Shown one piece after another: positions 16,311 to 54,664 of a stretch of DNA of 64,000 bases. Made by a program: the position numbers and the translations under genes. The number at the start of each line of letters is the position of its first letter. Position 1 is the first letter of the stretch. Under the pieces are notes generated by a model. It was given only the letters and a program-made list of their open reading frames with translations, was not told where the DNA came from and ran no database searches. The stretch is from the NCBI GenBank assembly GCA_965178125.1, contig OZ237736.1:1-64000 (forward strand). The letters run 5' to 3'. The stretch is from Bilabrum cf. latius (lineage: Eukaryota).

Positions 16311-16314
16311 ACCC

Positions 16315-23206: not shown

Positions 23207-23354
23207 TTGCTCAAGCGGTGTGGAAGGGCTCGAAGTCTTCCACGGTGAGAGTCCCATCATCACGCATCGTACATCTGCTCGATTTCAGAACTAGCTCGTT
23301 ACAATATAATATATCAGACGACTTGCGAGGAGGACCAAATCTCCAAAAGAAGGC

Positions 23355-28188: not shown

Positions 28189-29367
28189 TTACACCATTTC
28201 CTGCTCTGGCACCGGGCTGCCGCCGTTCGAGCGCCGCAGTGCCAGACCCTTCCTGCTCTGGACAGCCGCTCCTGGCGTGCCAGCTTCTCCAGCGCTGCTG
28301 TCGTCCTTTGCAACGGCACCACCAGGAGACGTCCAACAGCCTCGCTTGCTATTCGCTTGCACGTACACCCCCAGTGATACCAGGCCAAGCCCGGCGATAT
28401 GGCTCAGCGAAATGGCCTTGGGGAATAGCAGGAACGACAGGGCAATCGTGACTGCCTTGCGAGTTGATGTGACAAAGACAGTCATCGCACTATCCGTCAG
28501 ACTTATGAGTGCAAGTATGAAGTAGTATCCGACCCAATTCGTAGCTGCATACGCAACTATGGCCCCCACGATGAGTGAGACTCGGCGAAGGTCCCACTCA
28601 GGCTACCAGCGCGCTGCCTCCGCACTTTGCGTGTCATCAGCCTCGGCATGGCGGCCCCCCACAGTCGACATACTTGAACTCTGCTACCAGGACACAATAG
28701 TTTGGACCCCTATCAAGCACGTGGAGAAGACCAGGCTCCAAGCTTGCGAGTAAGTCGACGCCTCGAGATGGGTGGCTCGGTACTCGGTGAGCAAACTCTC
28801 CTGCAGATTCCCTAAAAATGCATCGCAGACCAATGCCGTGCTAATAATGGCGAATCCGTACGGAGAGCTCGTCCCAGCAGTGGAATCTGCCCAAGCATAG
28901 AGGCCCAGCCCGCCAATTAAGCACACCGCTGCAAGGTATCTACCGAATGGAAACTGTTTTCGGTATAGTATGGCTCCCACCAGCATAACAGGTATAACCT
29001 TCGATGATTTGCATACAATCTAGGCCGGGTACGACAAGTATAGTAACGCTAAATTGCTAAACTGTGCGGATAACAGATTTAGAGCTCCAACCGCAGCGTG
29101 CTTCGACAACGGCGCCCTCCTCTTGTTGAACCCACCCAAAAATAAAGACCCTACGACAGTCACAAGAGGGATAGACATAGCGAGTATAGCAGGCTGCCTG
29201 AACTGCATTTCGTTGATGACAAATTCCTGTGCAACCGAAGCCGTGAGATACATCACGTATATGCCAGCTGCCGCAAATAAAACTCTAAGGTTTGGTGGAA
29301 CCCAGTCAAGCGTTACGCCAGCCACCGAAAATTCGTCGGGTCTGGCGGCATGAGGAGCATTTGCCAT
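28189..29367 (-). CDS. UAA-family nucleotide-sugar/PAPS transporter (SLC35B-like)
   Basis: YLSYPA[TAG=Q]IVCKSSKVIPVM, DAFLGNLQE, TSTRKAVTIALSFLLFPK; ends EQEMV-TAA. Confidence 0.93.
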
Positions 29368-29604
29368 CAGGATAGTAGTGCGCGGCGAGTGGATAATGCA
29401 AGTGTCTATTGCCCAATCATCACATCATGATGCACGCCGCGACTGCCACTGGCAGTGTCAGCTGTCCGTCTCACTGCCAGAGCTGCCTTCTGAGTCTTCA
29501 TCGTGCTGGTCATCCGAGGCATCATCATCGTCCTCGTCGCTCGATGCGCATGATCCAGAGTCGGAGTCGTGCTCGGACCCTGGCAGGAAAGGGACCCCGG
29601 GAGC
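29259..29604. repeat. Direct repeat copy 1 (paralog at 33913-34219)
   Basis: Shared atatgccagctgccgcaaataaa ... ggaaagggaccccgggagc with indels. Confidence 0.93.
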
Positions 29605-30377
29605 GCCGCCAGACCGCAGGCCGGCGACGTAGATCTACCTGCCGCCCACTGCGGCAGCGAGGCGTGAGCACCCTGCCTGCATACCGCTCCGTGGTAGGCA
29701 GCTTCATCCTTGCTGCGAGCGCACGGGTACCTATGTCCCATACCATTACCAAATTGTCGCCGAAAGCGAGCACGATGAGCTCCTCCGCCACCACTGGCAG
29801 CGGACAGGTCGCCAGAAACCGTTGGCACCGCTCCGCAGATGCACCCATTAGCAATACCATCACGAGAACGCAGGCTTCCGACCTTGTTCTAGTCCGCAGT
29901 ACCCCATAAGATTGCTTTGTCAGCAGACACAGAGAGCGCCCTTATGCCGCTCGGACTCACGCTGCACTGGGGCGGAACCATGGCCCTTTAAGGTTGCGAG
30001 TGCGCCAGTGCCAGACGTAGACCCTTAGCTCAAGTTTGATATGCACACTTTCATGGTACCGCCGGCCGTACCCACCTATAGCTCCCGGGCGGTGGTTGGA
30101 GCTGCTTATGAGATACAGGCGCAGGTTGCAGCAGATCCGCTGTGTCCAAGCGGTTCACGGCGATTCTACTCCAAGGGGAAAGCCTCTACAGCTGATCCTT
30201 ACTTTTGTGCCAACACTTATACCGAACCATCGTAGCTAACAGCCACGGCACCAGCACGGGAGCCCCTTGCGATTTGCCTGGCAGGATTCGAAGGAGTTGT
30301 CCATCAGAGTTTGGCGCTGGCCGACGCTCCCTCACATTATTCGATCCCGACACATTTAAATCTTGAACAGTTGCCAT
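29458..30377 (-). pseudogene. Unresolved or chimeric coding-like region: WD-like fragment ending in a duplicated acidic tail
   Basis: LIVLAFGDNLVMVWDIGT fragment; frames do not join cleanly even with TAG=Gln. Confidence 0.25.
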
Positions 30378-30825
30378 CTTGTACGACCGGAGTCCAATAA
30401 AAAATATGCAAACGCGGCGCTAGAGCGTCAGTCTACCGCGACGACGACTCGCGACTCGGAGTCGCGAAGCATCAAAGGTACACGCAACAAAATGTGACTT
30501 CCCGGCTCCGCACCTGTACGCTTTCTCCTTGTGAAGGCAACAGTCTGGGGGCCTGTGGGGGACCACACTGATGGCGAAGAATGGGAACTCGGCGGCATAG
30601 GCTGAGAACGGGGGGCCTTTGGCCTGAAAGGGTCGGGGGTCTTGTAGTCCTTTGTTTTAGGGCTCCTCTGGATCTAGGTGATCACTGATCACCCAAACCC
30701 CCTCGGGGGCGACGGTGCATCTGGGTGCTTACGGAATCTTTACCCAACAATGTATTTCTGTATTTCTGTATTTCCGGCTTGCTTGTTCGGGTCAGTTTTT
30801 CGCTTCCCGCGAAGCGAAACGGGCT

Positions 30826-33764
30826 ATGAGAGGACTTCTGGGGGCTATATGCGCCACTCTCGCGCTTGAATCTGCGGCTATGCCATACAATCCGGTACCA
30901 GACCCGACCTCAATTGTGGTGCACGGCCATGCGCGATTCACGATTCTGTCCGACTCCTTGGTCCGGATCGAGGCTTCGAACCACACGAAGTCTGGCGCGT
31001 TGCAGTTTGACAACAGGGCCACACTTGCGGTAGTCAATCGGCAGACTGCAGTTCCGCGGTTCTCCGTGACACAAGAGAACGTGACGGCAATAAGGATTAG
31101 TTTGGGCTCAATGAGCATCGTCCACAACGCTGTGTATGAACCGCCGACCCAAGAATGCCAAAACCAATCGACGTGGATGCAAGACACTGACTAGAAGGGT
31201 GGGTCACGAAGCCCGTTGTTTCCCAACGGGACTGCCGTGAACGACGCAGGAGACTGCTGCAGGGTGTGCGCAGGGGATCCTCACTGCACGGCATGGGTAT
31301 TTGCCACCGATGCAAAGTCGACCAACTGCTACGCAATGTCAGAAGTCCAGGGCACCAAACCGGCTGCCAACCACATATTTGGCCGCCCCAAGCGCTCAAT
31401 CTTGACCCCGAGCAATCTTGAAATTTCCACAGCCGGCGGCTTCAGGTGGACGCCGGGAACTCAGGACGACGCCAACCTGAATGGCACTGCAGTTGATTTC
31501 TTTTGCGCGAACCAAGTGGATATTCAGGACTGCATTACTTCACTATGGGCTCGCATCACCCCGGGACTACTCTCAAAGTCTGGCTGGACGTTTCTTGACG
31601 ATTCTGCCACTCCCCGATTCGAGACCGAGGGCGGGTCGCAGTCTGGGTGGCACGAAGAAACGTTCATCGATGAGTCCGACTGGTACTTTGCCGCATACGA
31701 CGCATCGCTGACGGGAGAGCAGGTACCCGACTACCGGCGCTCGCTTGCTGCCTTCGCAGAAGTCTCAGGCAGGCCAGCCATGCCCACTCGTGGCGCGCTG
31801 CTGCCCGCCTACTCCCACTACTACCCATACGGAGAGAACCTGATCGGAAATTAGACGCTTGCGGAGTATCGGGCCCGCGAAATGCCCCTCGGAGTGCTGG
31901 TGTCCGACCTGTTCTGGCACGAAGTGACCGTGCCAGAGCCTTGCTAGGGCTACGGAGGCTACGTCTGGAACTCATCGCTGTGGCCTGACCCGAACGGATA
32001 CCTCGAGAAGTTACACGGGGGCGATTCAGAGTACGGGGCTCCGCTCGAATTCACGGTCAACGTGCATCCCCAGGATGGGGTCGATGTGTGTCAAGGGGAG
32101 AGCTACTACCAGATCGGCAAGGCGGTGGGCTTCGACACGTCGAGCAACAAAACCATTCCGTGCGATATTGCAAATGAGACCTTCAGCGATGCCCTGTACG
32201 AATATGTCACATCCAGCCCTTCCCACACCAACATCGACTTTTTGTGGACAGACTATGGCGGCTGCGGGCACAAGACAGAGCTTCCCAAGAGCCATTTCTT
32301 GCTGTGGAACAATATCGATTTCGCCAGGAGAAACACGGCCATGTTCGAAGGGACTAGGCGGCCCATGGTGCTGTCCCGGTACGGTGGGCTAGGCGATTAG
32401 CGCCGCCCCGTGGGTTTTAGCGGGGACACGCACCAGTGCTACGAGGTGCTGCAGTGGCAGGTGGGGGCCACGCCCATGGCCAGCAATGCCCTCTTCCCGT
32501 ACTGGTCCAGTGGTGAGGTACAAAGTGGTTTCAAGTGCCCCTCCGAGTTGCAAGGCCTGGGTTCTGAGTCTACCCCGCTCCCTCTTGCCACCGGCGTGAT
32601 TGTTTCTTGCTTGCTAGCATCGGTAGTCACTCATGTGCTATTTCTGTTTCTACCGCAGATATTGGGGGTTTCAAGCCTGCTGGCACTGGCCCGGGGTGTA
32701 CTGGAAGCTGGCAGGGTGGGAACACGACCCAGGGGGAACTGTACCTTCGTTGGCTGCAGTTCGGGGCGTTCAATCCAGTCTTCAGGACGCACTGTACCAT
32801 GTGCATCGACCGGGACAAGTATGCGCCTTGCACGTACTGCGAACGGCACATCTGGAAATGGCCTGACCTGTACGGCGCCATGAGGGACGCCTTTGTGGTG
32901 CGGGGCATGCTGGTACCCTTCCTCTACTCTGAGAGCTTCCGCACCTTCTCGACCGGGACAGGCACATTCCACAGCATGTACGTGGACTACCCCAATGACA
33001 CACACGCATATGACTATGCCCTTTCCCAGTATATGATGGGGACATCCGTCATTGTGGCGCCTGCGGTGGTTCCTCTCGAGGCCGGCGAAGCAACCACCTC
33101 GGTGAAGGTCTGGCTGCCCGAGGCCCACTCGGAGTGGGTGTCTTTCGACGGCTCCAGGACAGAGGCCGGTGGCAGTGTGATCAGCGTGGACGCGGGGCTC
33201 GACGATGTTCCTTCCTATGCCCGTGGGGGCACCCTTCTGCCCCTGCAGAGCCCCGACAGCGCGATGGATGGAGCGAATGCCACCGCCCCGGCGATCCTGC
33301 TATGGACCATGTGGCTGCATGCGAGCAGAAGCCCCGCAGAGTCAAGGTTTGAGCTGTTCGAGGATGACGGCGTGTCCACCGCATACCAATCCGTGACGGA
33401 AGTGAATGCATCCAGTGTGAGCGTGGTTACCACGTCAGCAGCCGCCGTATCGCCAGACGAGCTGACGATCCACATCAGCAGTTCCCAGGGAACCTTCGCT
33501 GGTGCGCCAACCGAGCGGAAGCACTGGTACTCGGTGCGCGGCTTCGGGCAGAGCAGCGGGGGCAAGCTGCCCGCCTCGGTCACCGTGGACGGGAAGGACG
33601 TGCCCTCCATCGATGGAGCGAGCAGTGCAGATTTCGGGTATTTCCTGGTCAATGCCGCGATGGCTACCAACGCCACCCTTTCGAATCCTGAGGGCACGCT
33701 TGTGGTCAGAGCTGGAGGGCCTGTGTCGGTATCCCAGATGCATTCCATGGTAGTGCGCCTGTGA
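30826..33764 (+). CDS. Secreted GH31 alpha-glycosidase with an inserted PAN/apple domain; intron 32513-32658
   Basis: Signal peptide; ARFTILSDSLVRIE; PLGVLVSDLFWH; LWPDP; DFLWTD nucleophile; GFSGDT acid/base; spliced YWSSDIGGF; ELYLRWLQFGAFNPVFRTH; 4 TAGs. Confidence 0.93.
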
Positions 33765-33912
33765 GGCACTGTCTGCGGGGTAGACTTAGTGTGATGTCTG
33801 CCATCGGAGTTTGCAAATTGGCCGATGCAGAGCAATGGCGCTTGCACAAGCAGTGGCTTGTGAAAAAAATACTGGCTTGCTGTTGTCGTGAGATTCATTC
33901 CGTAAGTTTTGG

Positions 33913-34219
33913 ATATGCCAGCTGCCGCAAATAAAACTCTAAGGTTTGGTGGAACCCAGTCAAGCGTTACGCCAGCCACCGAAAATTCGTCGGGTCTAGC
34001 GGCATGAGGAGCATTTGCCATAGTAGTGCGTGGCGACTGGACACAGTGTCTCTTGCCCCAATCATCACATGCTGTCCGTCTCACTGCCAGAGCTGCCTTC
34101 TGAGTCTTCATCGTGCTGGTCATCCGAGTCATCATCATTGTCGTCCTCGTCGCTCGATGCACATGATCCAGAGTCGGAGTCGTGCTTGGATCCACTGGCA
34201 GGAAAGGGACCCCGGGAGC
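33913..34219. repeat. Direct repeat copy 2 (includes a truncated copy of the transporter's first ~36 codons)
   Basis: MANAPHAARPDEFSVAGVTLDWVPPNLRVLFAAAGI encoded twice. Confidence 0.93.
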
Positions 34220-36959
34220 TCTCGACCGCTCGCGGACCCAGGCCCATGTGCCATCGCAGCCGACAAACCTCCGTCGCCAGGGCCTCCTCCCGTAAACGCC
34301 CTGCTGCGACCTCCTCTGCGAGCAGCAGTGAAGCAGTCGCTCGCCTGCTATCGCCCTTGCCGGACGCCACCTGAGACAGTGCTCCCAGCAGCCGGTAGTT
34401 CAGCGCAGCCAGCGACTCTGCCTCGTCTGCACTGGGTATTTGCATTGCTGCGTGCTCTCGGGCAGCCGGACCGGCCCAACGGAGCTGGGCGCGATTCGCA
34501 TAGGCTGGGACAGGGACAGGGAGGGCGAAGGGGGGTGCACCTTCGCCCCGCACTCGCGAGAGACCGAAGTCCGCGGATTGCTGGGAGAGTTTAGCCTGCA
34601 GCTGAGCGACTTGCTCTCGCAGCGACTTGGCCTCAAGCCGCCGCCGGAGCACTTCGGCATGCAGCTCCGGACTGCTCGTCTGACTCTGGCCCGCTGGCCC
34701 ATCTGCACCTGCCCCGACCTGATGACGCAACAGGCCGACAGCCCGTCGGCCGACTCCCTCGACGGCTGCTTGCTGCGCCTTAGCCATGGCAAGGCCTCTG
34801 TGGTCCGCAGCTCTACGCAGCTGAGACATGGCACCTGCGAGATCGTGCCGTCGACGCGCACCCATCAACACGCGGACCATCTGCTTGCAAGCGATGCGCG
34901 ATCGGAAGGCTCGGAATGCTGCTGTCTCCTGTGAGAGCGCAAATGCCAGTCGCTGGGCCACTTCCTGGGCCCGACGGCTGTCTTCGTCAGCCACCTCGGC
35001 TTCTGCCTCAGCAGTAGCCACAAGTTGATGCATGCGCCACTCATCGGCGCGAGGCGCATCACTCCCCGATCTAGTGTCATGGCCAGCTGTCCTGACGCTC
35101 GTTCTAACGGCATCTGCTGCCGACTGAATCGCCATGAGCTGGTCTTCAGCTGAACGGATGCGCCCTGCAAGTTCAGCCTTGGGGGCGTCGACCGAACGAT
35201 GAGGGCGTGGGCTGGCAGGCCGTGAATCGTGTGCACGCTATCTAGCGACTGGCCATGCCGCCGCAACCGGCTCTGCTGTACGCGGCGCCTGGGCTGTACT
35301 TGCTATATGGTTTGTACCTGGCCTATGGGTTGGCGCGTCATAACCATTTTTGACAGCAGACCTTGCAGTTTCTGTACGTAGCTTGTCGCTATCGCCGTGG
35401 TCAGAGCCTCGATGCGGGGCATGGTCCGCAGAGGTGTGAGGAACTCTCGGTGGGCCAATGCTTCCAGTGTACGGCTGCACGGCGTTGCTGTTCACATCTG
35501 CCCTCCCAGCTACGGTTCGGGCATCAGCGGGTGCTGGAGCTGGGACACCATAGCTCGCTTGTCCTCCATCCCCCAATGCCCCCTTGGTATCGTGGACGCG
35601 AGTGGCCGGCTCCAAGTCACCGTCCTATGCGCCGTGGTGAGCGAACGGAGCCCGTGCAACTTGTACTGTTGAGTCGGACTGCGCCACTGGCGGTGCCCTC
35701 GTTGACTACTCCGTCCGTAGGTTCGTGTTGGTTGCATTCTAGTCCCCCAAGCGAACCTTCGCCACATGCTACTTTGCTTGCTCCCGCACAGGGGCTCCGA
35801 ACGAATCTTGGGCTGTCAAAGAGTAAGCGAGCGCGTGGCTTCCGCTTTGTGCTTGCGCCACAGAGCCTACTGGCTGGGTCTGATCTGCACGAACCTGATG
35901 GACGTCCACTCGGCCAGAGCTGCCACCTGCAATCTGCCCGATGGCCCGGTCCTCACTGCCACCAGAGGCACCCGAGGCCCGGTGTTCGATGGCCCGGTCC
36001 TCACTGCCACCAGAGGCACCCGAGGCCCGGTGTTCGATGGCCCGGTCCTCACTGCTACCAGAGGCACCCGAGGCCCGGTGTTCGATGGCCCGGTCCTCAC
36101 TGCTACCAGAGGCACCCGAGGCCCGGTGTTCGATGGCCCGGTCCTCACTGCCACCAGAGGCACCCGAGGCCCGGTGTTCGATGGCCCGGTCCTCACTGCT
36201 ACCAGAGGCACCCGAGGCCCGGTGTTCGATGGCCCGGTCCTCACTGCCACCAGAGGCACCCGAGGCCCGGTGTTCGATGGCCCGGTCCTCACTGCCACCA
36301 GAGGCACCCGAGGCCCGGTGTTCGATGGCCCGGTCCTCACTGCTACCAGAGGCACCCGAGGCCCGGTGTTCGATGGCCCGGTCCTCACTGCTACCAGAGG
36401 CACCCGAGGCCCGGTGTTCGATGGCCCGGTCCTCACTGCTACCAGAGGCACCTGGGACCCGCTTCCCCTTTGATCCAGGCGCTTGCCTGCTTGTCAGAGG
36501 TGCGCCTTGCTCGCGCAGCCCTCGGGTTTCCTTCCCGGATGCTCCAATGTACGAGACGCTGACCGGAGTGCCGCCGGACTGCCGTCTCGCACGAGCCTGC
36601 CTGAGCCTCTCGGCGCGATCGGGCTTTCCGGCCCTGCTGCTGCTCTAATCAGATGAAAGGTTTGGGGTAGCGCTACAGGCCGCTACATCTCGTGGTCGAG
36701 CGCCAGAAACAGATGACGTCGCTTGTGGCTGCCTTGCAAGCTGGGAGTCACCCGCAAAGTAGAACAAATATGTTGTTCGGTCGTAGCCAAACCGAATGGC
36801 ATCTGCAGATCTGCGATTATTGGAACGAACAGTGAGAGCTGTACTCGTACAGATGCGGCTAAATAGCTGTACGATGGTGGAGCGACAAGAGCATCCATGC
36901 ACCTTACTGTAGCTTGTGCCGACTATCCAAAACTCTATCACTGTTGACAAACGTACCAT
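34065..36959 (-). CDS. Low-complexity/coiled-coil hypothetical protein with an acidic tail (start uncertain, 36898 or 36959)
   Basis: One frame from 36959 to TGA at 34065, broken only by TAGs. Confidence 0.65.
35940..36452. repeat. 48-bp coding minisatellite x~10.7 (ASG[S/G]SEDRAIEHRASG on the minus strand)
   Basis: GATGGCCC recurs every 48 bp from 35940 to 36420. Confidence 0.97.
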
Positions 36960-37434
36960 TCATGCTTCCTAAATCGACTAATTCAGCATTCGAATCCGAA
37001 TGGAGCTCAATTCTAGCATGGTTAGTTGAGATTGACCTTGACGACGGCAAGCACTGCGCGAGGGGCGTTGAGGGGAATCAGATCGTTCAGTACGGGAGCC
37101 AATGCTACCAAGTATATGCAGGCAAGACATAGTGCTTACTATGTCATTCTATTCACCGCGACCGATGGACACTGGCGATGATTCTAGCTCGAAGACAACG
37201 TCCGGCCCTTGCAAGACGGCAATAACAGCGTCAGCCATCGGTGGAAATATTACAATTAATACAATTTATTCTAATCAATATTGAGTCACGAGCATTATTC
37301 CGGTAGGATGCTATGCGTTTCGCAAGCACTGTTTCAAACGGCCAAAGCTGCAGAGCAGTGCAATGCATCAAAGATGCACTGCATTGCATACAGCTTCATC
37401 CTGGACAGGAATCATTTTCAGTCCATTGTCGCTG

Positions 37435-38874
37435 ATGCAGCACCCTTCAGTACGGTCTGGCACAAGTGGTCTCAAAATTTCATCAAGTGGTAGTGCGGGG
37501 CTAGACAAAGCGATCGGTGGAGGTGTTCCTTTGGGCTCACTGTTTGCGATTGTCGTCGATGGCTCATTGGGCTGGCAACTCGCTGAACCAGTGGTTAGAA
37601 GCATGATCACACAATCATCAGCCACTGGATAGCATGTCACAGTGGTTGGCGACGTAGATTGCTTGCGAAGATTGCGAGATAACTTGCCAATGCCGACTGC
37701 ATTAGATGTTGAGGACAGCTCAAAACCTTACCAAGAGCCCAAGCTTCGTGTCGCGTGGCAGTACAGCTAGTACATAAGCAAGGGGAGAGTGTCAGCTGGA
37801 ATTCAGGCTTCCCGACGCGGTGGGGCAGTTCCAATGGATCTCGGCCGTGCGTGGGGCTGCTCCGCGGGATCAGCGAGCGGTGCGGAGGAGCAGACCGATG
37901 AGCAGCTGCTATCCGCCATTCAATGGTTGAGTGTGAGCAAATTAGTCTCAATGTCTCTCTGTGAGTAGCCTGTTTATGTTGCTTCACGGCAGAAGGGTGG
38001 AGGAGTAGCGGAGGTAGCTCGCTCGCACAGTAGACTCTGTCTGCTGTGCCACCAGGCGGTTCAGGCGGTAAAGGAGCGCGTGGCGCAGTCCTAGAAGGAA
38101 CCCGGAATCCCATCAAGGGTAGTGATTTTGGTAAATCCGCCCGGACGATCCGCTGGGGTTGGCGGTGCATCTCTCGAGTCCTCTGCTTGGGTCCCGTGGC
38201 TAGCCGCCCGAGCTCGTCGCGCTACGTCTGGCTCGGCGGTCTCTGTAATTATCGTGTTGTGCAGTCGTGCGGATGGTGTTAGTCGGGGCATGGACCGGGC
38301 AATCGCCAGGTCTTGCCAGTGTGCACACACAGTCACATCGATCTCCCACAAGCGCGACCCCGCTACAGGGAGCATTGGCAGCTGGCTTGTGCCGTGCGGG
38401 GAAGGACCGGAGTGGAGACTGCATGGTAAGACTGGCAGTGGAGCCGACAAGAAGCCTTCGTCGAGTCGATCCTCCGGAGAAGCGTCCGATGCCGCAGCGA
38501 AGGCCGTGTCGCGAGCAGCAGCGGCGGCAGTGTCTGCCCTCTCTGAGGTCTCGAGCACTGCCCAGGCTGCAGGCTCCGGGCCTGCGAAAGATTCATCGCG
38601 CTCCAACCCAAAGCTTCGAGCGTCTGATGGTTTGCTGTTAGTTTGGCGATCACACTGGGGGTACACGGCTAGGCCAACCCACGGCGGGGACAGCGTGGCT
38701 AGTGGTCGGGCCTGGGAGGTGTGGGTCTCTAAGCGTCGCTTGCGTATCGAGAGGCTCCGGCTTGGCGTATCCGAGGAGGAACCCAAGCGAGACAGCTCAA
38801 AGCCTGCTGCGGAGACGACCGACCCGGCTGCAATAAGTCGCAGCATTGCCCACGGGGCGTCGCAAGAGTTTTAA
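37435..38874 (+). CDS. ELP4: Elongator complex subunit 4
   Basis: HPSVRSG..SSGSAGLDKAIGGGVPLGSL, LRVAWQY, KRRLRIERL, C-terminal QEF-TAA. Confidence 0.82.
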
Positions 38875-39274: not shown

Positions 39275-42200
39275 TCACCCGATTGCACAGGACGGAAGCA
39301 CAGAGAATAATCCAGCACTTTCCTCCACAACAATAGAGTCTACATCTACGGGCTCGTCTCGATCTATCCTCCTCGGGAACAGGTCCTGGATGCGGGCGTC
39401 CTTCACGTCACGGCGCACGTAAAACAGTAGGTAGCCGTGCCTTGTCTGCACTTCGTCGGGGGGCATAGTGTGCACCTTGGAGTCGTTATGTGCTGCCCAC
39501 TGCCCATCATCACCGCGCACATATGCCACATAATGACCACCGCCCATAACCCCGAAGTGGTTTACGATACCCTGCAGGTCGTACAGGCAGTCGCTGCGAC
39601 GAAGGAGCGTCGGGACCTCGGGCTCCTCCACATCGATACCATCAGTACTTGCAACGTGAGGCTTGTCCGAGGACACGCTTGCCCCAGACCGAGCCGGTTG
39701 CACCCCAGCCATTCTGCCTCCCAGTCGGCGCCACTCCTCAAGTTGCGGGGGCGGGGCCTCCAATTGATCACGAGGCATAAAGGGATCAAGGTGCAGCCCA
39801 TCGAGCTGGAAGGTGACAAGGTTCTCCAGTTTCCTGTTGCCAAACTGGCTGTGCTTAAATCTCTTTAGCTGGATCACTAGCACTGGAGGCACTCGCCACA
39901 CCTCGAGGCGCTTCGTATGCCTGCGAAGCTCCACATTGTCGTGCACCCGGCTGCAGCGAGGGCAGAACTGCTCATCGTCGAGCTGCTCGGGCCTACTGAA
40001 ACTGTCAAAGCAGCGCGCAATCGAAAGCGGCTAGTCCCTTTCTCGAATGTGCCGTTGCACGGTAGGGTGGACATCCATGCGCTAAGCAGCCGCTGCGTCC
40101 AGAGCCCTGTTCCGCAGCAACGGGCTCCAGTCAACAGTAAGCACCTCATTGTCCAGGATGAAACAGCCTCCGGTCGCATTAAGCGCGCGAGCAGGCTCGC
40201 TCGATTCAACTGTATCTGGCATGGCAATAGCAGCGCAAATCTGGGATCGTAACTCCGCGTCGCGTACCTCTCTCAGCACCTTGCGCGGGCGGCTCACTTC
40301 AACCAGTCCGGATGCCGACACACGCTCGGTACCTTCCGCGACAGGAGCACTACCGGGGTCTTCCGCCGCCCCCTCCGAAATGCGGCAGTCCTTCACGATG
40401 TATTGCGGCACGTTCAATTTCATTGACCACCGCCCGAGGGTTTTGCCGTGCCACGGATGCAAAACCTCGCACTCAGATCGGTGCTCGTGCCACGCGAGCT
40501 TGCGACCGAGCTCACTAAAACCAGTCTCTCGCCTGATGCAGAAGCCCCACGTGTTCACAATATCAACGGGAGTCATCGAATCGGTGCCAATCGCCTCGTC
40601 CCAGTCGACCGATACAGTCTCAGAACGCAGCAACACCCATCCATCCGGGCGCTCAGACGTATCGCTACTCGACGTTTGCTAACCACTTGGCGGGACAGAC
40701 CCAAGTTGTCCATGTGCTGGCGATCCAGATTCGTGGTCCGAGCCATAGTCAGGTGCACTTGCCTCTTCGGATTGCTCCTTTGGAACCCAGTGCTGTTCGA
40801 CAGTCTAAACCATCACCTGTGCATGCAGACAAGCATTTGGCGGCTCCTCCCGCCGGCTCCGTCTGACGTAACGAGAGGTTGCAAACCACACATAACGGTA
40901 CAAGTCCGCAGCTGAGAGTCTTTCCCTTGGAATCCGAGTAGACAGCGGTAGGTCGCACGGGGTGTACGCGCTTTCGTTCAAGAACCACCGCCGGATCGGT
41001 TCCATTCTGCGGAACTGCAGCCACACCTGCGTTGGTCGCTGCGGGACGACATCGACAAACCTCGACGCGACTCCCTTGACAACTCGCCGGGTCTAGGCAG
41101 TCAGGAGCTCAAAGGTGCCATCCGCGTGCCTTGCCCTCACGATGCACTCGATTTGCTGGGCCACGCCTTGGGAGACTTGCAGCGTTGCCAAGACCCTCGC
41201 ATTCCTCTCCACGTGAACCTTGAGCTCTCCCAGCCCAGAGGATTGCGCCGCTGAGACATCCTGCTTGCTCTACACTTGCCAACACGCAAGAGTTCGGCCC
41301 TCTGGATGCCTACTCAACGGCTCTGAATCAGATATGGCTCGGGTTGACACCACCGACTAAAACACGGCTGGGGTAATGACCATTTCGTCGAGCGATAAAC
41401 GAGGCAGCTGGACCTTGCTGCCGATTTCATCGCCAGCTCCAGACTTCGTTGCCACAGGCACGTAGTTGCCGTTCGCAATGGCAGACTTAAGGTCCCCAAA
41501 CGTTCCATGCAAGGGAACATTAACAGATACCTCGACCGGGGTCGCTCCATGCAGCATACCTCCGCTGGATTCCCACCACCGAAGATTCGGCACGCTCCCA
41601 TCGGACTCATCAGCCCCTGCGCCCGATGACGGCTGGGCCTGCGCGAGCGCGCCTTGCCAGAATACCTAGATTCGTATTGGGCGCTTGCTAGGCTCTGGTA
41701 GAGGAAGGGATAGAGCTGTGAACACTTCGTACGTGCATCGCTCATTCCCACAACGACAACAGCGCAACGTAGACCGAAACTGCCCCGTAAAGAGGGATGT
41801 GAGCACGGACTTTTCTCGCTGCAGGTGATTGCACCACCACTCGTTCGCAACAACGTCATCTGGGCGACCGTTACTGTCAGGCTGCTCAATGTAAGGCTTC
41901 TTCTAGTTGCGGTTTAGTTCCTCGGCCAATGTTGACATCATCGCATCAAGCAGTTCCATTGCATCCTGTTGCCGAGTAGTGCCGAAATCTGCTCGGACAC
42001 GCGTCAGTACTGCTCTGAGCTGCCTCGGAGTGATTGATGTACTAGAGCGAGCCCATATCTCAGCACAGAGCGAAGCAAATGCGACCGACATGCGCCCTCC
42101 CTGTCCGAACGGGGCTTCCAAGTTCAAGTCCCACGCGTACTCACCCGAGAGAAAGTAGTCTCTCAAGAGGCGGATATGGGAGAGGCACTGCACCGCTGCA

Positions 42201-45104
42201 TTTGCATAGCAAGTGTTCCCTTGGTTGTACAAGCCAACGCGGCCATCGCCCACCTGCAAAGGCTACCATTTCGAAGACCCGGGCACGGCCACTGGTTGTG
42301 GCGCTGCACCAGGATCGTGCGATGCAGGCTTTGGCCCGCTTGTTCCTGGTACTCCACTCGAGGAGCCAGCCTTTTCATCATCCCAACCCCCGAGCGGCCA
42401 TCCTCCTTCGAGGTTCTTTCGCTCTAGCAACACCTCGAACACATCAGGAACCTGCAGCTGGTGCATGTACACGGGGCTAGGGTGCTCGCCAGCACTGACG
42501 CGCAACTGCTTCATCGGGCGCCATTTGCCTCCTGCTGTCGATACCTATGCCTAGTCAACCAAAGCAGCGCACGGCGATGATTGGTCAACCTCTGTCCTCC
42601 ACCACAGCCTCGCGTCAAGGCTTGCCCTGTTCAGCCCGCCAGACGTAACAGAGCGAGCAGAAGATACTGGATCTGCGAGGGCCATCAAGTCGGCGGAGGA
42701 GGCCAGCTTGGAAGCTCGGACAAAATGCCCGCCTGGAATCGCCTGACCGTCCTTCCCGACTATCCTGACGCAGACGAAAGGAGGATGGAACTCTAGCTCA
42801 GATGAAATGGGGTCGGCAGCCCCTCTCTGAGGTGCACTTGCGGTCGAACTAGTAGCCACAGCATCAGATGGGACAACTAACTTGGGTACCACTCCCCTGC
42901 CCAAAGTAGTGTCTGCTCCATACCAACTAGAAAGAGCACTCCAAGCACGACGAGGCAGCATTACCACGTCCTTGCCAGCCTCCAATCCATGCTGCATCAG
43001 CACTGACTTAGGGACACGAAGAAGTCCCGCGTTCTCAATAGGCCCTGGTGCCTCAACAATCACAGCACTACTGGCTTGTCGCTACATCATTGCGGATTGA
43101 GCTGCATCGCCATCGCTGGATTCGTCCTGACCGCTGGCGCCCATGCTGAAATCGACGTAAGCTGCCCAAGATTTCCACCACGCCGGGTTGACAGCAAACC
43201 ACTCGTCTCCTGGCTAGCCACAGCTATACTCGCTGAATCGCTTGAAGCAGGCCTCCAAGCAGGTTCGTTGCTATTGAGTCGTGGCTGGAATCACACCAGC
43301 GTCAACACACACGGCAGTCCCAACAGCAATGGCTACATCAAGCGCCTGTGGCCACTTGCGACAGAGAGAGTGCACGCTGCTTGCCTTCCAAGCCTTTCCG
43401 GGTGACTCTTCCACGAGATCACACACGTGTTTCAGTACAGCTGATTTTTCTCGGGGCCACTTCGATTCCGCCTCCGAAACACGCACGGGGAAGCACCAAC
43501 CCATGGGGAGATCGACCGCTCCTGACCTCCTGCACTCTCTTAGCATCCAAGTTGCGAAGATGAACTCCTGCAGTCGAGTCCACGACACCTCCTCCGGTGG
43601 GCGGGACCCCGCAGTAGTGCCTTGAACGATGCGCAATGTGGCCTCGACGTGCACCTGCATCGAGTCTCCCATGCACAGGGCAAGTAGGGACAGGAGAGAC
43701 TTCTCAGAGGCGGCGGTTCCACCAGCGGGATCACAGGCGGACACGACCAACCGGATTAGCTGTGCGGGCAGGCTTCCGGCCGGTTGAGCACCGCGGGAGC
43801 TTGCCAGCTTCTGTGAAAGTGGCGACGAAGCCAGGGAAGATCTTTTTTGGCCACTAGTTGGGCAGATGCATTGCTTCTTCTCTGCACCGAACTGTCCCAC
43901 GATAGCGGCTACAGTGGCGGGGTCTAGCATCCCCGTTGCGCTCTTGCGCCGTGCCTGCTGAATGCGATGCTTAATCCCATGCAGCTGCATGGCAGGCAGA
44001 CCTGCTTCATTGGCAGCATCGAGCGCAGACCCTTCATCCTCAAGCGAGAGCTGCCTTAGCCCCCCGAGCACGGGGTTGGGCAGCAGGCACTCGATCAGGT
44101 GGTCGACCCAGCCGAGCAGTGGGGACCTTCGGAGCCGGTGTGACTCGGAAGTCACCTCGTGCTAGGGCTGCCCGGGGAAGCTGGGAGCCCCTGGCGTGCC
44201 CTGAGGAGGGAACTTTGCATCTGCAAGAGGTGGTACTGTGGACTGGGGCGCGACGGCACGCGACTGGTCATCAGGCCCGACGTGCTCCGGGGACAGTCCG
44301 CCCCTGTCTTTTGCTGCCCAGGCTGCTGTTGCCGCGTACGATTCCGTTGAGGCATCTGCACTTCGGTGAGGCCGCAATGGAGCGGCTGCCCACTCCCGGA
44401 AAGTTGCATAATCCAACGTACCGTTCTTTTGAATGCCGAGCCACGCGAACACCTCAGCCACAGCAGCGGCATTCGCATCGCTTTCATGGGCCGATATTGA
44501 CGACGTGCCATACTTTGCGTACATTCGCACACATTCGAGATCGGCAAAACTTGCTTTTCTGGACTGGAGGCCTCCAGAAGACACAGAGCCAGACCCAAGA
44601 GCTGCGGCTGTAATTGCCAGAAACGTAAACTGCAGCCGAAGCTCCAAATTACCGCGCATGAGGATTGCGCACGCGCACACGAAGTCTTCAAGATGTAAGT
44701 CCTAGCCTCCAAGAGTTGCGCTAAGAAAAGCTCGTTTGCCTAATTCAGCCGGCTGCAAAACGTAATTGAGATCAATAGGTTGCTAGACAGTGTTCATTTG
44801 CCGGCGCTACCGCGATCAAGTTGCGCAAGCATATGCCTCACAAACATTGGATATTCCGATAGAACCTCTTGCTACCAAGTTGGGTACCGCATTGCTGACA
44901 ATCCGTGTGGGCCCTCGCACAACCGGCGAAAGCATTCTTGGTACCGTGCTAGCAGATCAGGCCCAAGCATGGATTGAGCTTCCTCAAAGCTGCGATATAG
45001 ATTGAATAGGGCGACACTATCAAATGGCAAGGCGCACGCAGCCAGATTCGTGGGCACTATTTGCCAGGGCCGTACCTCAGTAGTTTGCTCGGAGTTGTGC
45101 CCAT
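39275..45104 (-). CDS. USP32: USP32-like deubiquitinase (EF-hand N-terminus, DUSP, split USP domain, C-terminal CaaX-like CAIG); two 5' introns
   Basis: MGTTPSKLLSFEEA..., DUSP WFAVNPAWWKSW/PGPIENAGL, Cys box GLYNQGNTCY, QQDAMEL, His box NHFGVMGGGHY; fragments join via TAG. Confidence 0.88.
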
Positions 45105-45382: not shown

Positions 45383-48205
45383 TCACCCTTTCTTTCGCTT
45401 TGACTTCTTCTTCGATTTACGTTTCTGCTGCTGTCCTGGGCTCGTGCCCACTCCACCCGCAGCACCACCCAATAACAGTAGTGATGAGGTTTGCTCAGTG
45501 TCTTTGATGGCTCGCCCAGATTCCCTCAAAATTGCTACTGGCTGCGAGCCGCTGGGCCGACTTGCATCCTACTATCGAAGCTAGGTCTATCCCGCGGTGC
45601 CATATCCAGCTTCCCAGCGGCTGGTAGGCCGAGCAGGCATGGCTAGAATGCTACCTGCTGCCGATGCCCTAGGCGAGTTGCTTGCGAAGCCCAGTCCGGG
45701 CGGCGGCCTGCCATGCGCCACACCTGCGCTTATACCGGTGGGGGGCAGGCCGAGACCTGGCGGTGGACCCCTAGCGGCGATAGGGCCCGGCCTCGCGCGT
45801 GGCTGCGTCGCTTGATCACCTGCCGCAGCCAGGCGTGTCACCATGGCTTGGGTGCTTCCAGTCCTTGCCTGCGCAGCCGGCACAAATGGTCGTGCGTGCA
45901 CCGAAATCCCTGGAGTGGAACTGACTACTTGCCCCGAAGCTGCGCTTCCAGCAGCCGCCCTGCTGGCAGCACCCCCCGTGGCACTTGTTGCAGCCGCCCT
46001 GCTGGCAGCACCCCCCGTGGCACTTGTTGCAGCCGCCCTGCTGGCAGCACCCCCAGTGGCACGTACAATCCCATTTGCCTGCTCAGCTGTGCCCGAGCTC
46101 CCGCTTGCCCCCTTACCGGTAGATCCAGGGTCAGCCACTGCCGTGCTATTGCTTGCAGCCGCTGCCTCGCGGGTCCGCAGGAGACGCTTGGCATGCTCCA
46201 GGTGCGCCTGCCGCGCGCTTTCAGCCTGCGCACACGCGATGAAAGCAGCATACGCCGCTCGGTGGACGGCAGCATCCGTTGATATCTTGGCCAAGCTCCT
46301 CAACAGCAGCATGGCTGCCTTGGCTCCCAGCTGCCGCTTCATGTCAAAGAGCAAATGGTCAACGGCTTGGGATGAAGAGCTACCGCGCCGCACCTCTCTA
46401 GAGGACTGGGTAGTCGCAAGTGACGAAGCCGGCTCAGCTTCCGACCAAGGGCCACGGGCAGGTTCAACGCCAGCTACCTCAAGGATTAGCCGATGAAAGC
46501 GCCGCCTGGCTGAGGCAGCGTCCAACTCGCTGTCCAGAGTGCCGGCCTTGGCTGCTGCCTGGCAAGGCAGACCAACTCGCATCCACAGCTCCTGCTGCAG
46601 TGCTTCCTGCTCCCGCCTTGGCACGCTCGCGTGCCCAGACGCAGCGCCACCCTTTTGCGTGCTCTTACCCTTACCCTTTGCCCCCTTTCTACTCTTCCTC
46701 CCTTTCCTGCCCTTGCTTTTCCTGTCCGGCACAGGGTCTGCCATCAAGGCCTGCATCAGCCCGTTTCCACCACCCGGCGCACTGCGACCAAGGGAAGGCC
46801 ACGGGAGCATGCTCTCGGGGGCCACGGGTGGGGCATCAGGCGGTAGCAGCGGACTCGTACTGGCATTATCGCTATATCCAGGGGCAGCTCCAGGCGCTGC
46901 CGCAGCCAAGTCAGGCAATCGCCCCGCGTCACTCTCCCAGATCGCCCGTGCGACGTCTGTGGCGTCCTCAACCGCACTGCGCACACTGCTGTCCCCAACA
47001 CGACCCGTCCCATGCTCAGACAGACTGGCAGACGCTGCCGCTGGTGCTGCTACAGTCCCCGCAGATGACCCCCTGCTCCCGGGCTTCCGCCCTCCTTCTG
47101 CCGAGCGTCGCGCAATGGATCCATCAGTGCCAAGCTGGATCGCCCGTCCTGTGTGCGGCGTGAACAGCACGCTGGGAGCTCCTGCACGACGATGTCCGCG
47201 GTCCCCGCCAGCGCGTCGGTACCCGTGCGCTTCGCCTTCGCCATGGGCAGCAAACGCGATGCGAGGCGGAGGGGCGCCGTGCACCTCGTGCGCGTGTGCC
47301 TCCAGCTGGTAGGACGTGGCAAAGGCTGCGTGCGGGTCTTCCCTGCACCCTGGATGACCACACCGGTAGTGAACATCGGCCTAGTGCCGCATCAGCGTGC
47401 GATGATTCGAAAAATAGCGCCGGTCCGGGTCGTGCTCGCTCCCAGACGCCACCCCAGCTGCGTGCGCCGCGGCCAGACAGACACGGCAGGCGACGTGCTC
47501 GCGCTCCAGGTGTGCGAACAGTTCATCACTGTGCATGAAACCCAATCGGCAGAGCCCACAATATGGGTGAGGGGGGATTGGGGCCACCCCATCCAGCTCG
47601 GGGTCGCCTCTGACGTTGTGGTCGGCCAGGCTGTCTCGGGTGTATGTCCGCTGCTCACACAGCAGCTGCTAGCGACCAGCCAAGCACACATCGCACCAAT
47701 ATCGACCATGGACTTTGCGCAAGTGAGATCGAAGCTAGTCGAGTGCGGATTGCGCACTCGCGCGCTTGCTATGTCTTCGGCCATCCCCCGCCCCGCGCCG
47801 TCCTCCGGCGGGTTCCGACAGGACATGGCGCCTACATATGGGACACACAACACCAATCTCCCCATTAACTGATGCACGCAATTCTGCTGATGACACCAGT
47901 ATCCGTATTCTAGAGTACTCGGCTCGCGGCCTGCCCGACGACGACAGCACCAGCAATGCCTTGTCACACTCAAGCAACGAGCTTGCAACTGCCGAACGAA
48001 ACGGGTTTGGCGATTCATGGTGCTTGCTATCTGTTTGGACTAACGCTATGGAGGCTATGGGATTTTTGCAGACCGGACAACCGGGAAATGCACTCGAGCT
48101 CTGCAGCCTCACGAGGCACCTCCAGCACACGTCATTGTGACCGCATTCAAGGAGAGCAATCGAGTCTTGCGGCTCGCAGCACAAAATGCACTCTGCATGT
48201 TCCAT
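45383..48205 (-). CDS. ZNF598: ZNF598/Hel2 ribosome-quality-control RING E3 ligase
   Basis: RING CILC..CGHNDVCWRC..CPVC, C2H2 fingers, GD..HPYCGLC..DELFAHLEREHVAC; TAG read-through to a Lys-rich end and TGA at 45383. Confidence 0.87.
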
Positions 48206-49014
48206 CAGCAAGCAGTCAGATTTGCTGCTTATCCTAGAAGCCTCCTCCTGGACGATGCAAAGTTGTGGTTCTGGCGACCACAGTATTGGCAGTGCACTGC
48301 ATCTCCAAAAAAGAAAAAACACGATTTGCTATCCACATTCGCGACAGCCCCGTCCATCGTATGATTCACGGCACCTCTTAAACGTGGGTACGCATGGCAT
48401 CTGCAAGTGCAAAGGCTGCGGTGGACAGGCCAGACATTCAAAAGGCGCTGCAAAGTGCAGTGAGCCAATCGCTTGCAAAGCTGCGGTAGCAAGAGATCGG
48501 TTCGCCTCCCACTGCAGGGGCAGCAATACACAATGGACTACCGATAGATGTAGAGGCTCGCTCCAGTGGAACGACCGGCTTAGGCCGGGCGAGCGCGCCG
48601 GCGGTTCGATAGCAGCGCGCTATCGTTGTTGCTGAGCCAGGCGCCACGATACTTTGGGGGGCAAGACTCATTTGGGGAACCTCAACGTACCAATTGGGTA
48701 GGTACTACTCGTATGCAGAAGCTCGAACGGCATTAGATGCTGCTTTGCTGCATGCAACGGCACAGCATGCCAGCATTGCCAGCAGGGAGGCTGGCGAAAC
48801 CTCCGATCGCCGAGCTGCCGCGGGACCATCACATCCATTCGGAGGCGTGTTTGCCATTCGAATACCAACCCCGGTGGTTGCAATCGACTTAAACGTGAAA
48901 TGAACTCAGACTAAAGTTGACTGTGTGTGGATCAGAGAAAACGTGTGCGACTGCTTTTCACACCATTAGACCTCTTGAGCTGACCCAAACTGTTTGTAGG
49001 ATTCATGGCTGCCT

Positions 49015-50766
<1,752 letters not shown>

Positions 50767-50924
50767 TTAGGTTGAATGCTAGCCGTTCGTGCCTTCGATC
50801 CGTTATCCAATTTGGTAAGGAATCTGGTTTAATGCGTTCGCAGGAATCTGCATTTTAGCTGTTGCGTGTAAATCCAATTTGCAGTAAACCACGTAAAAGC
50901 CGCGCAGGCGGTTACAGAAACAAG

Positions 50925-52848
50925 TTACATGCCTTCAGAACTATACCAGTGCGACCTTACATGTGCACTGGGTGGCTATGGAGGAGTAGCGCTGCTTGCA
51001 GCCCCAGTCAGCACCCTGCTCGATGCTGGTCCAGCAACCTCTCGATACCCTCCAATCGAGCCAGAGAGAAGGTTCTATCGCCCTGTTACACGTGATATCA
51101 CCCCAGAAGAGCCTGCTATGCTGGACTCCGCCTGGTCTGGACGAGTTCCCGACGGCCCAGTGGAGTCTGGCAACGCTGCAGCTGGCTTCAGCCTGCGCTC
51201 CTTCATGACAAGGATGCTGACCAGTTTTGAACCCTTAACACTGCGTGCCGTGGTCTTCTCGTACCTCTACACAACCCTGACGCGGCTGTTGGGTCCCTCT
51301 AGGGTGATTGACTCGAGCACTAGCAGAGCCCCGGTGTCTGCGTCCCACGCTCGCACCACAACGGTGCGGTCGTCCTCCTCGCGCGCTTCCACGACTGCTT
51401 TGCCAGTTTGACCAGCAGTAGATCCACGACGGGCCCCTTGCATTCCTGGCGACCCGTGCGTCTGCTCGATGCGAGTGCTGGCACCCGCACCCCTCCTAAC
51501 CACGGCCAGTCCGCGGCTGTCGCCGCTGGCAGCAGTGGAGCCTGCAACAATTGGCTGCACGCCCCCTCCGCTGCTTGTCACAATTTGATCGCTCACACCC
51601 GGAGGAAGGGCGGCAGCGGGTTTAGATGAGGATGGGAGCCTGCGCCCTGCGCCTGCAGCTGCAGAGCTGGCCCAGCCTCCACTGGGTGCCTGGCCGTCCT
51701 CTCCTCGCGATGCGTGCCCGTGGCCCCGTGAATGCCTCTCGCTGTCCTGATCCTCCCGGCGACCCGCCTCGTGGCTCTCCTGGCCCTGCTGGCCCTAGAG
51801 CACGACGGCGCACCGACCGTGGGACACTGGCTGCAGCTGAAGCAGCTGGGCCTGCCGCTGCCAGTCGGGCTGCACGTCCGCTGCTGTGCCGATCTCGCGG
51901 GCTGCTGGGCCGTGGCCGCGACTGTGCCCTGATGATGCCTCCCGTGGGGCTCGGCTGTGCCCGGTCGGCACCGGCGCGAGCCCGCCCGCCTGCGTTGCGA
52001 GCGCTTCAGCCGCACCCCCTCTGGCACCTCCGCCTTGTGCATGCCTCGCCACGAACAGGCCAGGGGCCTCTCCCCCGGCGGTAAGCGCGGCCCCGCGGAT
52101 CCCACGTAGACTCCGTCCCGCCGGGCCCGGGTCAGTCGCACGCACCGGCACAGGTCCTGCGGCTGGAGCTGGCGCTGCCTGCGACTGGCTCCCAGAGGCA
52201 GGGGGCCCGCCTGCCCCCGGCCTCTGCAGCGACCCCCGCCGCACCGGATCACCCACGAAGGTCCGGTCTACCCAGCAGCCCCCTGAGGCAGCCGCCTTGC
52301 TGTCAGAGTCCACGTGCCCCGCGCGATGCTCGCCTGTAGGAGGCAGCACGGAGACCCATGAAACTGCGAGCAAGACGGGAAGGAAGAAAGGAGCGAATGG
52401 AATGCAAGGATGGCCGAAACTGGATTCTGGCCACTGTGGCGCGCATTCTAATGCGGTGCACCCACTCACAATCACTCCGGACGTAGCGAACTTCCGGCTC
52501 GCCCTGGCTACCCTCGGCTCCTGCAACCGGTCCTTTCGACCCGAATGCGTGGAAGGACGCCCACCCCTCCCAGCTGCCCTCCATGGCAGGCAGGGCTCGG
52601 AACCTGAGCCTAAGGGGCCCGCACTCAGTCACCTTTTCGGATAATACTCGCCGCCCATCTCCTTGCACTACATCTGGCCCCATACTCGTGTTGTACGGTG
52701 CGGCATCACCGCCCTCCAACAGCTTTGGCCGAGCGTTCCGGTGTCGGGCGTCGGCGCCAGCCTGCTGCCAGCTGCGGGCGGACCCCTCATCGTGGAGGTC
52801 TACCCCGCTTTCCGCGCTAGTCGAGCGTACCATTGTGGTCGTACCCAT
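50925..52848 (-). CDS. Hypothetical protein, possible beta-barrel (EGSWEGW) with low-complexity insert; exon structure uncertain
   Basis: ORFs 51795-52526 and 51267-51596 join via TAG and end in TAA at 50925; probable intron near 52370-52470. Confidence 0.45.
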
Positions 52849-52986
52849 TCGCAATGTCTGAGGTCTTGCTGCGAATTCCCATCCAACGCCTTGCGATGTT
52901 TCTCGATCAAGTGGAGGCGGCGATCGAACTGATTGGCTCCCTCCGGCAGTAGCTTGCTGCGGTGTTCATGCGAATTCAAGACAGCC

Positions 52987-53376
52987 TTACCGCAGAATAC
53001 ATGCGATTTTAAGCTAGATTTTAGAGCGTGCGCGTCTCAGACCGACTCGATCTGTGGCCACGTGGCTCCTCACATCATCTTGGCTCGCCGCCTCCATTCG
53101 GTTGGCCAGCTCGTGATAGTTTGTGAATGCATACGAGGAGAGCGCACTAATCGATTGGATATCAACAGAGGATCCATCTCGGACGCCACAATCATGCAAA
53201 CGCTTGCTGTCTGGTAGCCTAAAGCCGCCAGAGAGAAGTGCAAACCGTCCAAGCGCTTGGATGCCATACTTAGCCTAAATTCTTGCTTTCAGTCTAGCAA
53301 CGAGGTCGTATGCTTGGCAAACATACTCCTCTGCGGCTGTTTCACTAGATCCTGGGTGCCTTACAATTACCCGCAT
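52987..53376 (-). CDS. Ubiquitin-like domain protein (may splice into the downstream gene)
   Basis: MRVIVR..VARLKARI[TAG=Q]AKYGI..GFRLPDSKRLHDCGVRDGSSVDI; ends TAA or uses a GTAAG donor. Confidence 0.7.
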
Positions 53377-53521
53377 CTTACACGAAAGGGGAATACTGCC
53401 GCGTGATCCAAGATTGATTCGGTTGCTAATGCTGAAGATGAAGATACTCCGGGCGACGCGACGCCGTGGTGACCAGACCATCACCGCCGGGTGCCTGTAT
53501 ACCACTCTAATCACGATCGAT

Positions 53522-54664
53522 TTACACTGAACCTGTTGGGGCGCACTTTGCCTGGCCTGAATCGAGATGAGCCCTTCCGCGGTACACGGTCGTTGGTGGC
53601 AATACGCGAAGCAGGCAGTCCGCCGTCACGCTCAGGTAGTGCTTGCCGGGAGCGGGTTCGATCACGCTGGCCCCACGCAAGGTCACGGCGGCCCCCAAGT
53701 CCAAGGCTCTGCCCGCCTCAGCCACTGCATCCCTCTGCATCCACGCGACCATGGACTGCCCGCTACCGTCCACGAGCGTGCACACGGTGCCGTGGGGGCC
53801 GTGATGCATGGCAGCCACTGCGCACACCAACACGCCGAACCGTCTTCCGTGAGCTCCTCTAGGCCGCTTTGCAGTGCGAATCACGTCTCTAAGCATCTGC
53901 ACGCCGCTTCCACCCGGTCTTCCGCCGGCAGCATCGAGCGGGGTACCTGGCGAAGGCCCCCGCCGCAGCAAGCCCCACTCTCCACCACTCACGCCCTCCA
54001 TTGATTCGAGCCACGCACCAGACCGATAGAGAGGCGAGAGCAATCTGTGCGAGTGGCCTGCCAGTGGGGGTGGGGTGTCCGCGCAGTGGTCTCGCCCAGG
54101 CGTCGTGCTCGACAGGAGTGCTGCCTCCGCCTGGGGCAATGAGGCTTTCTCTGGCGAGATTGATTTCGGACTATGCATCAGTGAATTTGCACGTGTTGCC
54201 GGGCCGTCAGTCTTCGAGCTGCCTCCCCTGTTCATGGGTCTAGGAGGAGATGCCTCCTGCTGATGCTCTCCAATGCGCGACGGAGCCTCTGCGGAGCTAA
54301 CTATGATTCGCGCAGGACTTTCTGTCCTGCGTTTCTTCTTTTGCTGCTACGACTCTGCCGGACGACGTGCGAGTGGCACATCTCCTGAAGTGCTAGAGCT
54401 AGGGGCGACGCCAGATTTGGAAGATGCTGCTGATCCCTACGTGTACTTGAATCGTGCAGATTCTTGCGGACGTGCACGTTTCAATGGAAGCACATTGATC
54501 GGTTCGGGCTCTACACCTGCCTACATGTCCTCCTTGATGACTTGCAAGGGCTTGCGGACTCCCGTTGGCTTTGAATCGCCTGCCAAATTATTCGAGGCGG
54601 ACCACGAGAGACTCTGCGAGTCCATCGACAGGCTTTCAACGTCCGGAATATCTAAATCATCCAT
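53522..54664 (-). CDS. HROB: HROB/MCM8IP-like OB-fold protein (DUF4539)
   Basis: TLVDGSG.SM.AWM.R..V..G..LDLGAAVTLRGASV..P...HYLSVT..C+LR+; frame extends through TAGs to ATG 54664; TAA stop. Confidence 0.75.

Follow-up and report, generated by a model that had tools for sequence, protein, structure and literature searches.

The window analysed here is the whole of a 64,000-base stretch of Bilabrum cf. latius DNA (positions 1-64,000, forward strand, of contig OZ237736.1 in assembly GCA_965178125.1), and our subject is the genetic code in which its genes are written, above all the separate fates of the codons UAG and UAA. From 16 kb to the window end the guanine-plus-cytosine (GC) content is about 58%, and the genes that can be found there depend on how TAG is read. 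Under the standard code, the region from 16.6 to 64 kb holds a single open reading frame (ORF) of at least 500 residues. With TAG as a sense codon it holds 12, totalling 11,240 residues, the longest being 1846, 1330, 1094 and 1086 residues. The DNA comes from the nucleus of a cellular eukaryote and not from a virus or an organelle. An initial annotation had proposed that UAG and UAA are uncoupled in this DNA, with TAA still acting as a terminator at the ends of four genes, and had recognised genes for SLC35B, ELP4, HROB and TMEM209. Pfam bears out all four names, and the four TAA codons lie where they had been placed, at 28189-28191 (minus strand), 38872-38874 (plus strand), 50925-50927 (minus strand) and 53522-53524 (minus strand).

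The SLC35B-like nucleotide-sugar transporter gene (28189-29367, minus strand; UAA transporter, PF08449, E 9e-45) contains three in-frame TAG and ends EQEMV-TAA. The TMEM209-like gene (25346-28048, plus strand; CytochromB561_N, PF09786, E 2e-6) also has in-frame TAG and ends at TGA. ELP4 (37363-38874, plus strand; PAXNEB, PF05625, E 2e-14) contains four in-frame TAG and ends GASQEF-TAA, and the HROB-like gene (53522-54664, minus strand; PF15072, E 8e-8) ends APTGSV-TAA. The fourth TAA closes the last exon of an unnamed gene without a Pfam match, unk3 (50925-52360, minus strand), which ends YSSEGM-TAA. Two of the longer genes rich in TAG are a mitochondrial-type (T7-like) RNA polymerase (60817-63999, plus strand; PF00940, PF14700), open at the window end and with 8 in-frame TAG, and a ubiquitin-specific protease (USP; DUSP-UCH type; 39275-44797, minus strand; TGA end). 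The USP matches PF00443 over the full profile (1-254 of 254), and this match spans several of the 19 in-frame TAG of the stop-to-stop ORF. Two unnamed genes ending in TGA carry 13 in-frame TAG each: unk1 (16929-20825, plus strand; no Pfam match), whose frame of 1330 open codons exists only with TAG as sense, and the coiled-coil-like unk4 (54807-57644, minus strand; TAG counted in the stop-to-stop ORF). Pfam also names a protein with GH31 and PAN domains, a ZNF598-like RING protein, beta-tubulin, a protein kinase and a DOT1-like methyltransferase.

UAG is a frequent sense codon in these genes, and it stands at conserved glutamines. The stop-to-stop ORFs hold 97 in-frame TAG. When the count runs from first ATG to stop, the 16 coding segments comprise 11,646 codons, of which 90 are TAG and none is TAA or TGA. 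Glutamine-type codons number 566 in the ATG-to-stop set: 346 CAG, 130 CAA and 90 TAG, so that TAG makes up about 16%. In the SLC35B gene, the TAG at 29020-29022 aligns with Q113 in the YPTQV motif of human SLC35B1, a residue for which the structure of a Q113F mutant has been deposited. The RNA polymerase columns were scored after the protein had been aligned by MAFFT with the full set of 120 retrieved homologues, and at three conserved TAG columns glutamine occupies 91 of 102 (61096-61098), 96 of 120 (63361-63363) and 119 of 120 sequences (63784-63786). The second of these columns is glutamine in both the yeast and the human mitochondrial enzymes, and the third is the glutamine of their KQTVMT motif.

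Beta-tubulin (49015-50751, minus strand; PF00091, PF03953; end EEGDEE-TGA) uses its glutamine codons in another way: the large last exon contains 15 CAG, no CAA and no TAG. Because this exon is free of both TAG and CAA, it suggests that TAG is disfavoured among the glutamine codons and that highly expressed genes avoid it. The exons of this gene were read by eye, with the ATG and the GTGAGT donor checked; it has three short 5' introns, within the first 100 codons or so.

A full HMMER search for ELP4 homologues among 1.84 billion representative sequences returned 31 matches, two of which derive from a 5.4-kb metagenome contig of 52% GC that we call L001 (positions 1-5366). The gene order on L001, unk2 (minus strand), ELP4 (plus strand) and USP (minus strand), is syntenic with the window, and the encoded proteins match those of the window at 42% identity (ELP4) and 61% identity (C-terminus of USP). 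L001 ELP4 has 527 open codons only if 8 TAG are read through, and one of its TAG positions is shared with the window (37768-37770, in the context WQY[S/E]-TAG-Y). In the USP gene, the window TAG at 40082-40084 and 40031-40033 both face glutamine in the L001 orthologue. The contig as a whole contains 13 in-frame TAG and no TAA in 1,107 codons, despite a preference for CAA (22) over CAG (14). The L001 ELP4 appears in public protein sets only as pieces of 91 and 133 residues, evidently the work of a standard-code gene caller that stopped at TAG. Judged by its sequence, L001 is a diverged relative with the same code.

The window offers 15 gene ends, 11 of them TGA and 4 TAA, and none requires TAG. 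If TAG had a dual meaning and served as a terminator as well as a sense codon, TAA and TGA would not be the sole terminators. Two late TAG could be cited in favour of this, one lying 24 codons before the TGA of the DOT1-like gene and one 16 codons before the TAA of unk3; translation may conceivably end at either. However, TGA or TAA explains every one of the 15 ends, and not one homology-defined C-terminus coincides with a TAG. Nor is TAG depleted near gene ends: across 14 genes, the last 25 codons contain 2 against 2.7 expected, and the last 50 contain 3 against 5.5 expected. We consider a dual meaning of TAG improbable.

Among the four TAA ends, that of ELP4 is the strongest. The TAA at 38872-38874 follows directly on a terminal QEF, which the initial annotation had likened to the (D/E)F ending of the family; the 31 homologues bear out the likeness, as the final residues are [DE]F in 11 of them and EW in one, and fragments make up most of the remainder. 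Moreover, this TAA shares its alignment column with the TGA stop of the L001 orthologue (AELF-TGA). For HROB, the TAA lies 23 residues beyond the match to the PF15072 oligonucleotide/oligosaccharide-binding (OB) fold, which covers profile positions 21-84 of 85, and P0159, a 95% identical protein in a second assembly, has the same TGSV terminus. In SLC35B, 47 residues separate the last aligned transmembrane helix from the TAA, across which GC content falls from 0.70 to 0.45. SLC35B and TMEM209 are convergent, with the TGA of TMEM209 140 bp from the TAA of SLC35B. Reading through the TAA at 28189 would add 278 codons before a TGA is reached, antisense to the TMEM209 coding region, as the initial annotation had claimed.

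The end of unk3 is the weakest of the four, its upstream exon apparently lying in another frame. Its codon-usage score is +0.09 to +0.21 in frame down to about 51100 and negative beyond the TAA. The SLC35B and unk3 ends, which have no homologue to anchor them, are plausible. GC content falls after three of the four TAA. A search of PDB sequences with ELP4 and HROB gave chance-level matches only, and a word-index search with SLC35B returned only two distant proteins, uninformative on the C-terminus.

The other side of the case is that TAA does not occur inside coding sequence. The initial annotation had reported no in-frame TAA in the long frames that it traced, and this stands, with none in 11,646 codons; the two other frames of the same set contain 46 and 48. 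The ORFs had been delimited by TAA and TGA, hence three extra tests independent of that delimitation were made. When TAA was also set as sense, the four longest ORFs were unchanged in length. The Pfam-matched stretches, chosen without regard to ORF ends apart from lying within these ORFs, contain 26 TAG and no TAA in 3,415 codons. The third test, on codon ratios, is given below. Besides these, candidates for a sense TAA are confined to the four codons that close genes and to three that shortly precede a start codon, a distribution not to be expected of an ordinary sense codon. With TGA as sense, frames merge indiscriminately.

These observations bear most directly on the possibility that UAA and UAG both encode glutamine (UAR = Gln, NCBI table 6), TAA being merely rare in a GC-rich genome. 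A-ending codons are indeed under-used here, with a GC content of 0.63 at third codon positions, and the frames beyond the four TAA do stay open for 24-278 codons. Yet the ratio of A-ending to G-ending codons (0.21-1.17; CAA to CAG, 0.38), applied to the 90 TAG, predicts 19-34 in-frame TAA if TAA were sense, and none is seen (Poisson P <= 6e-9). The absence of TAA from L001, which has 13 TAG, is also at odds with codon use there, as CAA exceeds CAG. The location of all candidate sense TAA at ORF ends, and the ELP4 TAA that follows the family ending in the column of an orthologue's TGA, also speak against it. It is very unlikely that UAA is read as glutamine in this organism.

The least credible proposal keeps the standard code and attributes the in-frame TAG to U-to-C editing (TAG to CAG), to pseudogenes or to assembly error, but 90 TAG with no TAA and no TGA over 16 segments of some 14 genes do not resemble decay or error, the independently obtained metagenome contig repeats the pattern down to a shared TAG position, editing leaves the absence of TAA, itself editable to CAA, unexplained, and we know of no nuclear editing of such kind and scale. 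Codes without dedicated stops, of the Condylostoma and Blastocrithidia type, were rejected, as TGA and TAA never occur in frame.

We therefore read the window as GC-rich protist nuclear DNA in whose cytoplasmic translation UAG encodes glutamine and only UAA and UGA terminate (NCBI table 15), and put the probability of this reading at roughly 0.88. With UAG read as sense and UAA kept as a terminator, the uncoupling of the two codons in this lineage is well supported. The initial annotation was right on this point. It had also singled out in-frame TAA at conserved glutamines as evidence that would count against its view; the window and L001 contain no in-frame TAA.

Several points weigh against the reading that UAG encodes glutamine and only UAA and UGA terminate. 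The gene ends sampled number 15, all within a single stretch of 47 kb. Codon usage gives a weak score (about 0.1 bit per codon), which over 40 codons hardly distinguishes a coding region from what follows it; for SLC35B it is still +0.08 past the TAA, and HROB shows no GC drop in the first 75 bases past its own. Of the 8 TAG in the RNA polymerase gene, five fall in columns that are gapped or variable and hence uninformative; among these five, one is mostly tyrosine (55, against 3 glutamines) and another mostly lysine (67, against 14). When TAG codons are aligned between the window and L001 in three gene pairs, 5 of the 16 ungapped pairs are glutamine or TAG. The remaining 11 face other residues, in fast-evolving stretches, and the pairwise evidence is modest for this reason. 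Finally, the molecular machinery that we propose below, a change in eRF1 together with a tRNA-Gln(CUA) and no UUA tRNA, is plausible and is drawn solely from published logic.

The decoding of UAG would be carried out by a tRNA-Gln with anticodon CUA, which could not pair with UAA and was probably derived from tRNA-Gln(CUG). A tRNA with anticodon UUA would be missing. The release factor eRF1 would have lost efficient recognition of UAG and kept that of UAA and UGA. Panek et al. (2017) and McGowan et al. (2024) infer the same eRF1 and tRNA machinery for other organisms (PMC5304391, PMC11687900). The 64-kb window contains no tRNA gene detectable by ARAGORN or Rfam and no eRF1 gene, and the 13 listed sequencing entries that match part of the stretch (6 of them with at least half of its words) include no RNA.

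The initial annotation had held that most eukaryotic reassignments change UAA and UAG together. This is correct, though uncoupled codes are in print, and the novelty that it implied was overstated: a code in which UAG means glutamine and UAA and UGA are stops was published in 2017 and is NCBI table 15. The 2017 report concerns Iotanema spirale (Metamonada, Fornicata), which has the same codon assignments and for which the same mechanism was inferred, with a T32G substitution in the GTS motif of eRF1 (PMC5304391). Iotanema is unrelated to the organism studied here, whose mitochondrial-type RNA polymerase, encoded in the window, clusters with stramenopile sequences. The predominant stop also differs, being UAA in Iotanema and TGA (11 of 15) in the window.

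UAG as glutamine with UAA as a stop is also described for the ciliate Protocruzia tuzeti and the phyllopharyngeans Hartmannula sinica and Trochilia petrani, and equated with table 15, in a second report (PMC11687900). As in the window, UAG encodes glutamine there and UAA remains a stop. In those ciliates the UAG codons are distributed along gene bodies much as the other glutamine codons are, and nothing points to a dual meaning. In that paper's alignments, 93.5-100% of ends are at UAA (PMC11687900), whereas the ends in the window are mostly TGA. The window differs from the ciliates in its 58% GC content, its spliceosomal introns (GTGAGT donor) and its TTAGGG-type repeats. Ciliate macronuclear genomes are AT-rich.

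Other codes share less with the window. The two papers list UAR = Gln (table 6) for many ciliates, hexamitin diplomonads, some ulvophycean green algae, Streblomastix and Amoeboaphelidium (PMC5304391, PMC11687900). The likeness there lies in the assignment of UAG to glutamine, with a descendant of tRNA-Gln as the probable decoder; these codes also read UAA as glutamine, whereas in the window UAA closes genes and never occurs within coding sequence. The same papers give UAG as leucine in the rhizarian exLh and three TARA phyllopharyngean ciliates, and as serine in Scotinosphaera (PMC5304391, PMC11687900). Those codes are likewise uncoupled, with UAA as a stop, but the amino acid differs, as the conserved columns of the window read glutamine. 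The code itself is thus already known, and the new part seems to be the lineage.

To place that lineage, we turned to the RNA polymerase. In a quick single-gene tree, the window sequence groups with Cafeteria roenbergensis and two unnamed sequences (Shimodaira-Hasegawa-like approximate likelihood ratio test, 95), and this group lies within a 14-sequence clade (support 100) adjoining the ochrophyte stramenopiles. The best identity is about 50%, and unusual composition was flagged for both the window and Cafeteria; for these reasons the placement near Cafeteria, which comes from one protein sequence, is tentative. No paper on a changed nuclear code in stramenopiles or bicosoecids came up in literature searches screened by title and the opening lines of abstracts. 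It is possible, at somewhat less than even odds in our judgement, that this is the first nuclear code change in a stramenopile, in a heterotrophic Bigyra-like lineage near the bicosoecids with at least two diverged species, those represented by the window and by L001. If so, it would be a further independent origin of UAG as glutamine with UAA as a stop, in a GC-rich genome whose main stop is TGA. Relatives of Cafeteria are known as giant-virus hosts, and the lineage would then also be a candidate natural host for giant viruses with the same code; it may thus aid the search for their hosts. A scan of viral contigs with the kinase domain of the window returned only kinases 21-28% identical, with no link to a giant virus.

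The remainder of the window holds several features unconnected with the code. The left 16.5 kb (1-16529) are non-genic and consist of 155-bp satellite arrays alternating with seven (ACCCTA)n blocks, which are complementary to a TTAGGG-type telomere repeat. The largest block (15230-16310) contains about 180 copies and is followed on its right by a 53-bp repeat (16314-16529). With telomere repeats interleaved in this way, the region looks subtelomeric. An open frame at 3300-4372 (plus strand), between two of the telomere-repeat blocks, reads like an acidic, lysine-rich protein with a TGA end; it is a possible subtelomeric gene, for which Pfam gave no match. Pfam gave no matches for nine further ORFs at 2.9-4.4 kb and 21.4-30.4 kb. 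Two adjacent ORFs at 21957-23284 (minus strand; TGA end) contain a G-x-S-x-G elbow (GISSGAYMA) and a CWDWF motif recognised by eye. Together they read like one intron-split secreted esterase, a name given by eye to a protein with no Pfam match at E <= 0.01.

A segmental duplication of about 320 bp (29259-29580 and 33913-34193; 92-99% identity) carries the first 36 codons of SLC35B and a copy of the 3' end of unk2. Two copies of the SLC35B/unk2 junction thus exist, some 4.6 kb from each other and separated by the GH31 gene. That gene (30682-33764, plus strand) encodes a GH31 glycosidase with an N-terminal PAN domain; its frame is split into two overlapping parts (30682-32883 and 32568-33764), and therefore an intron near 32.5-32.6 kb is implied. 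unk2 (34065-36959, minus strand) has no Pfam match and contains, at 35700-36400, about 11 tandem units of the 16 residues ASGASG[S/G]SEDRAIEHR.

For anyone annotating this organism, the immediate consequence is practical. Standard-code gene callers shatter its genes by breaking them at TAG, as the two fragments of L001 ELP4 illustrate, so that annotation needs table 15. More broadly, uncoupled codes show that the eukaryotic termination and decoding machinery can tell UAG from UAA, and very few such codes have been described. Another independent origin would be provided by this new and unrelated lineage, which is GC-rich and has a sequenced chromosome. It would help to test which changes in eRF1 recur, and whether tRNA-Gln(CUA) always comes from tRNA-Gln(CUG).

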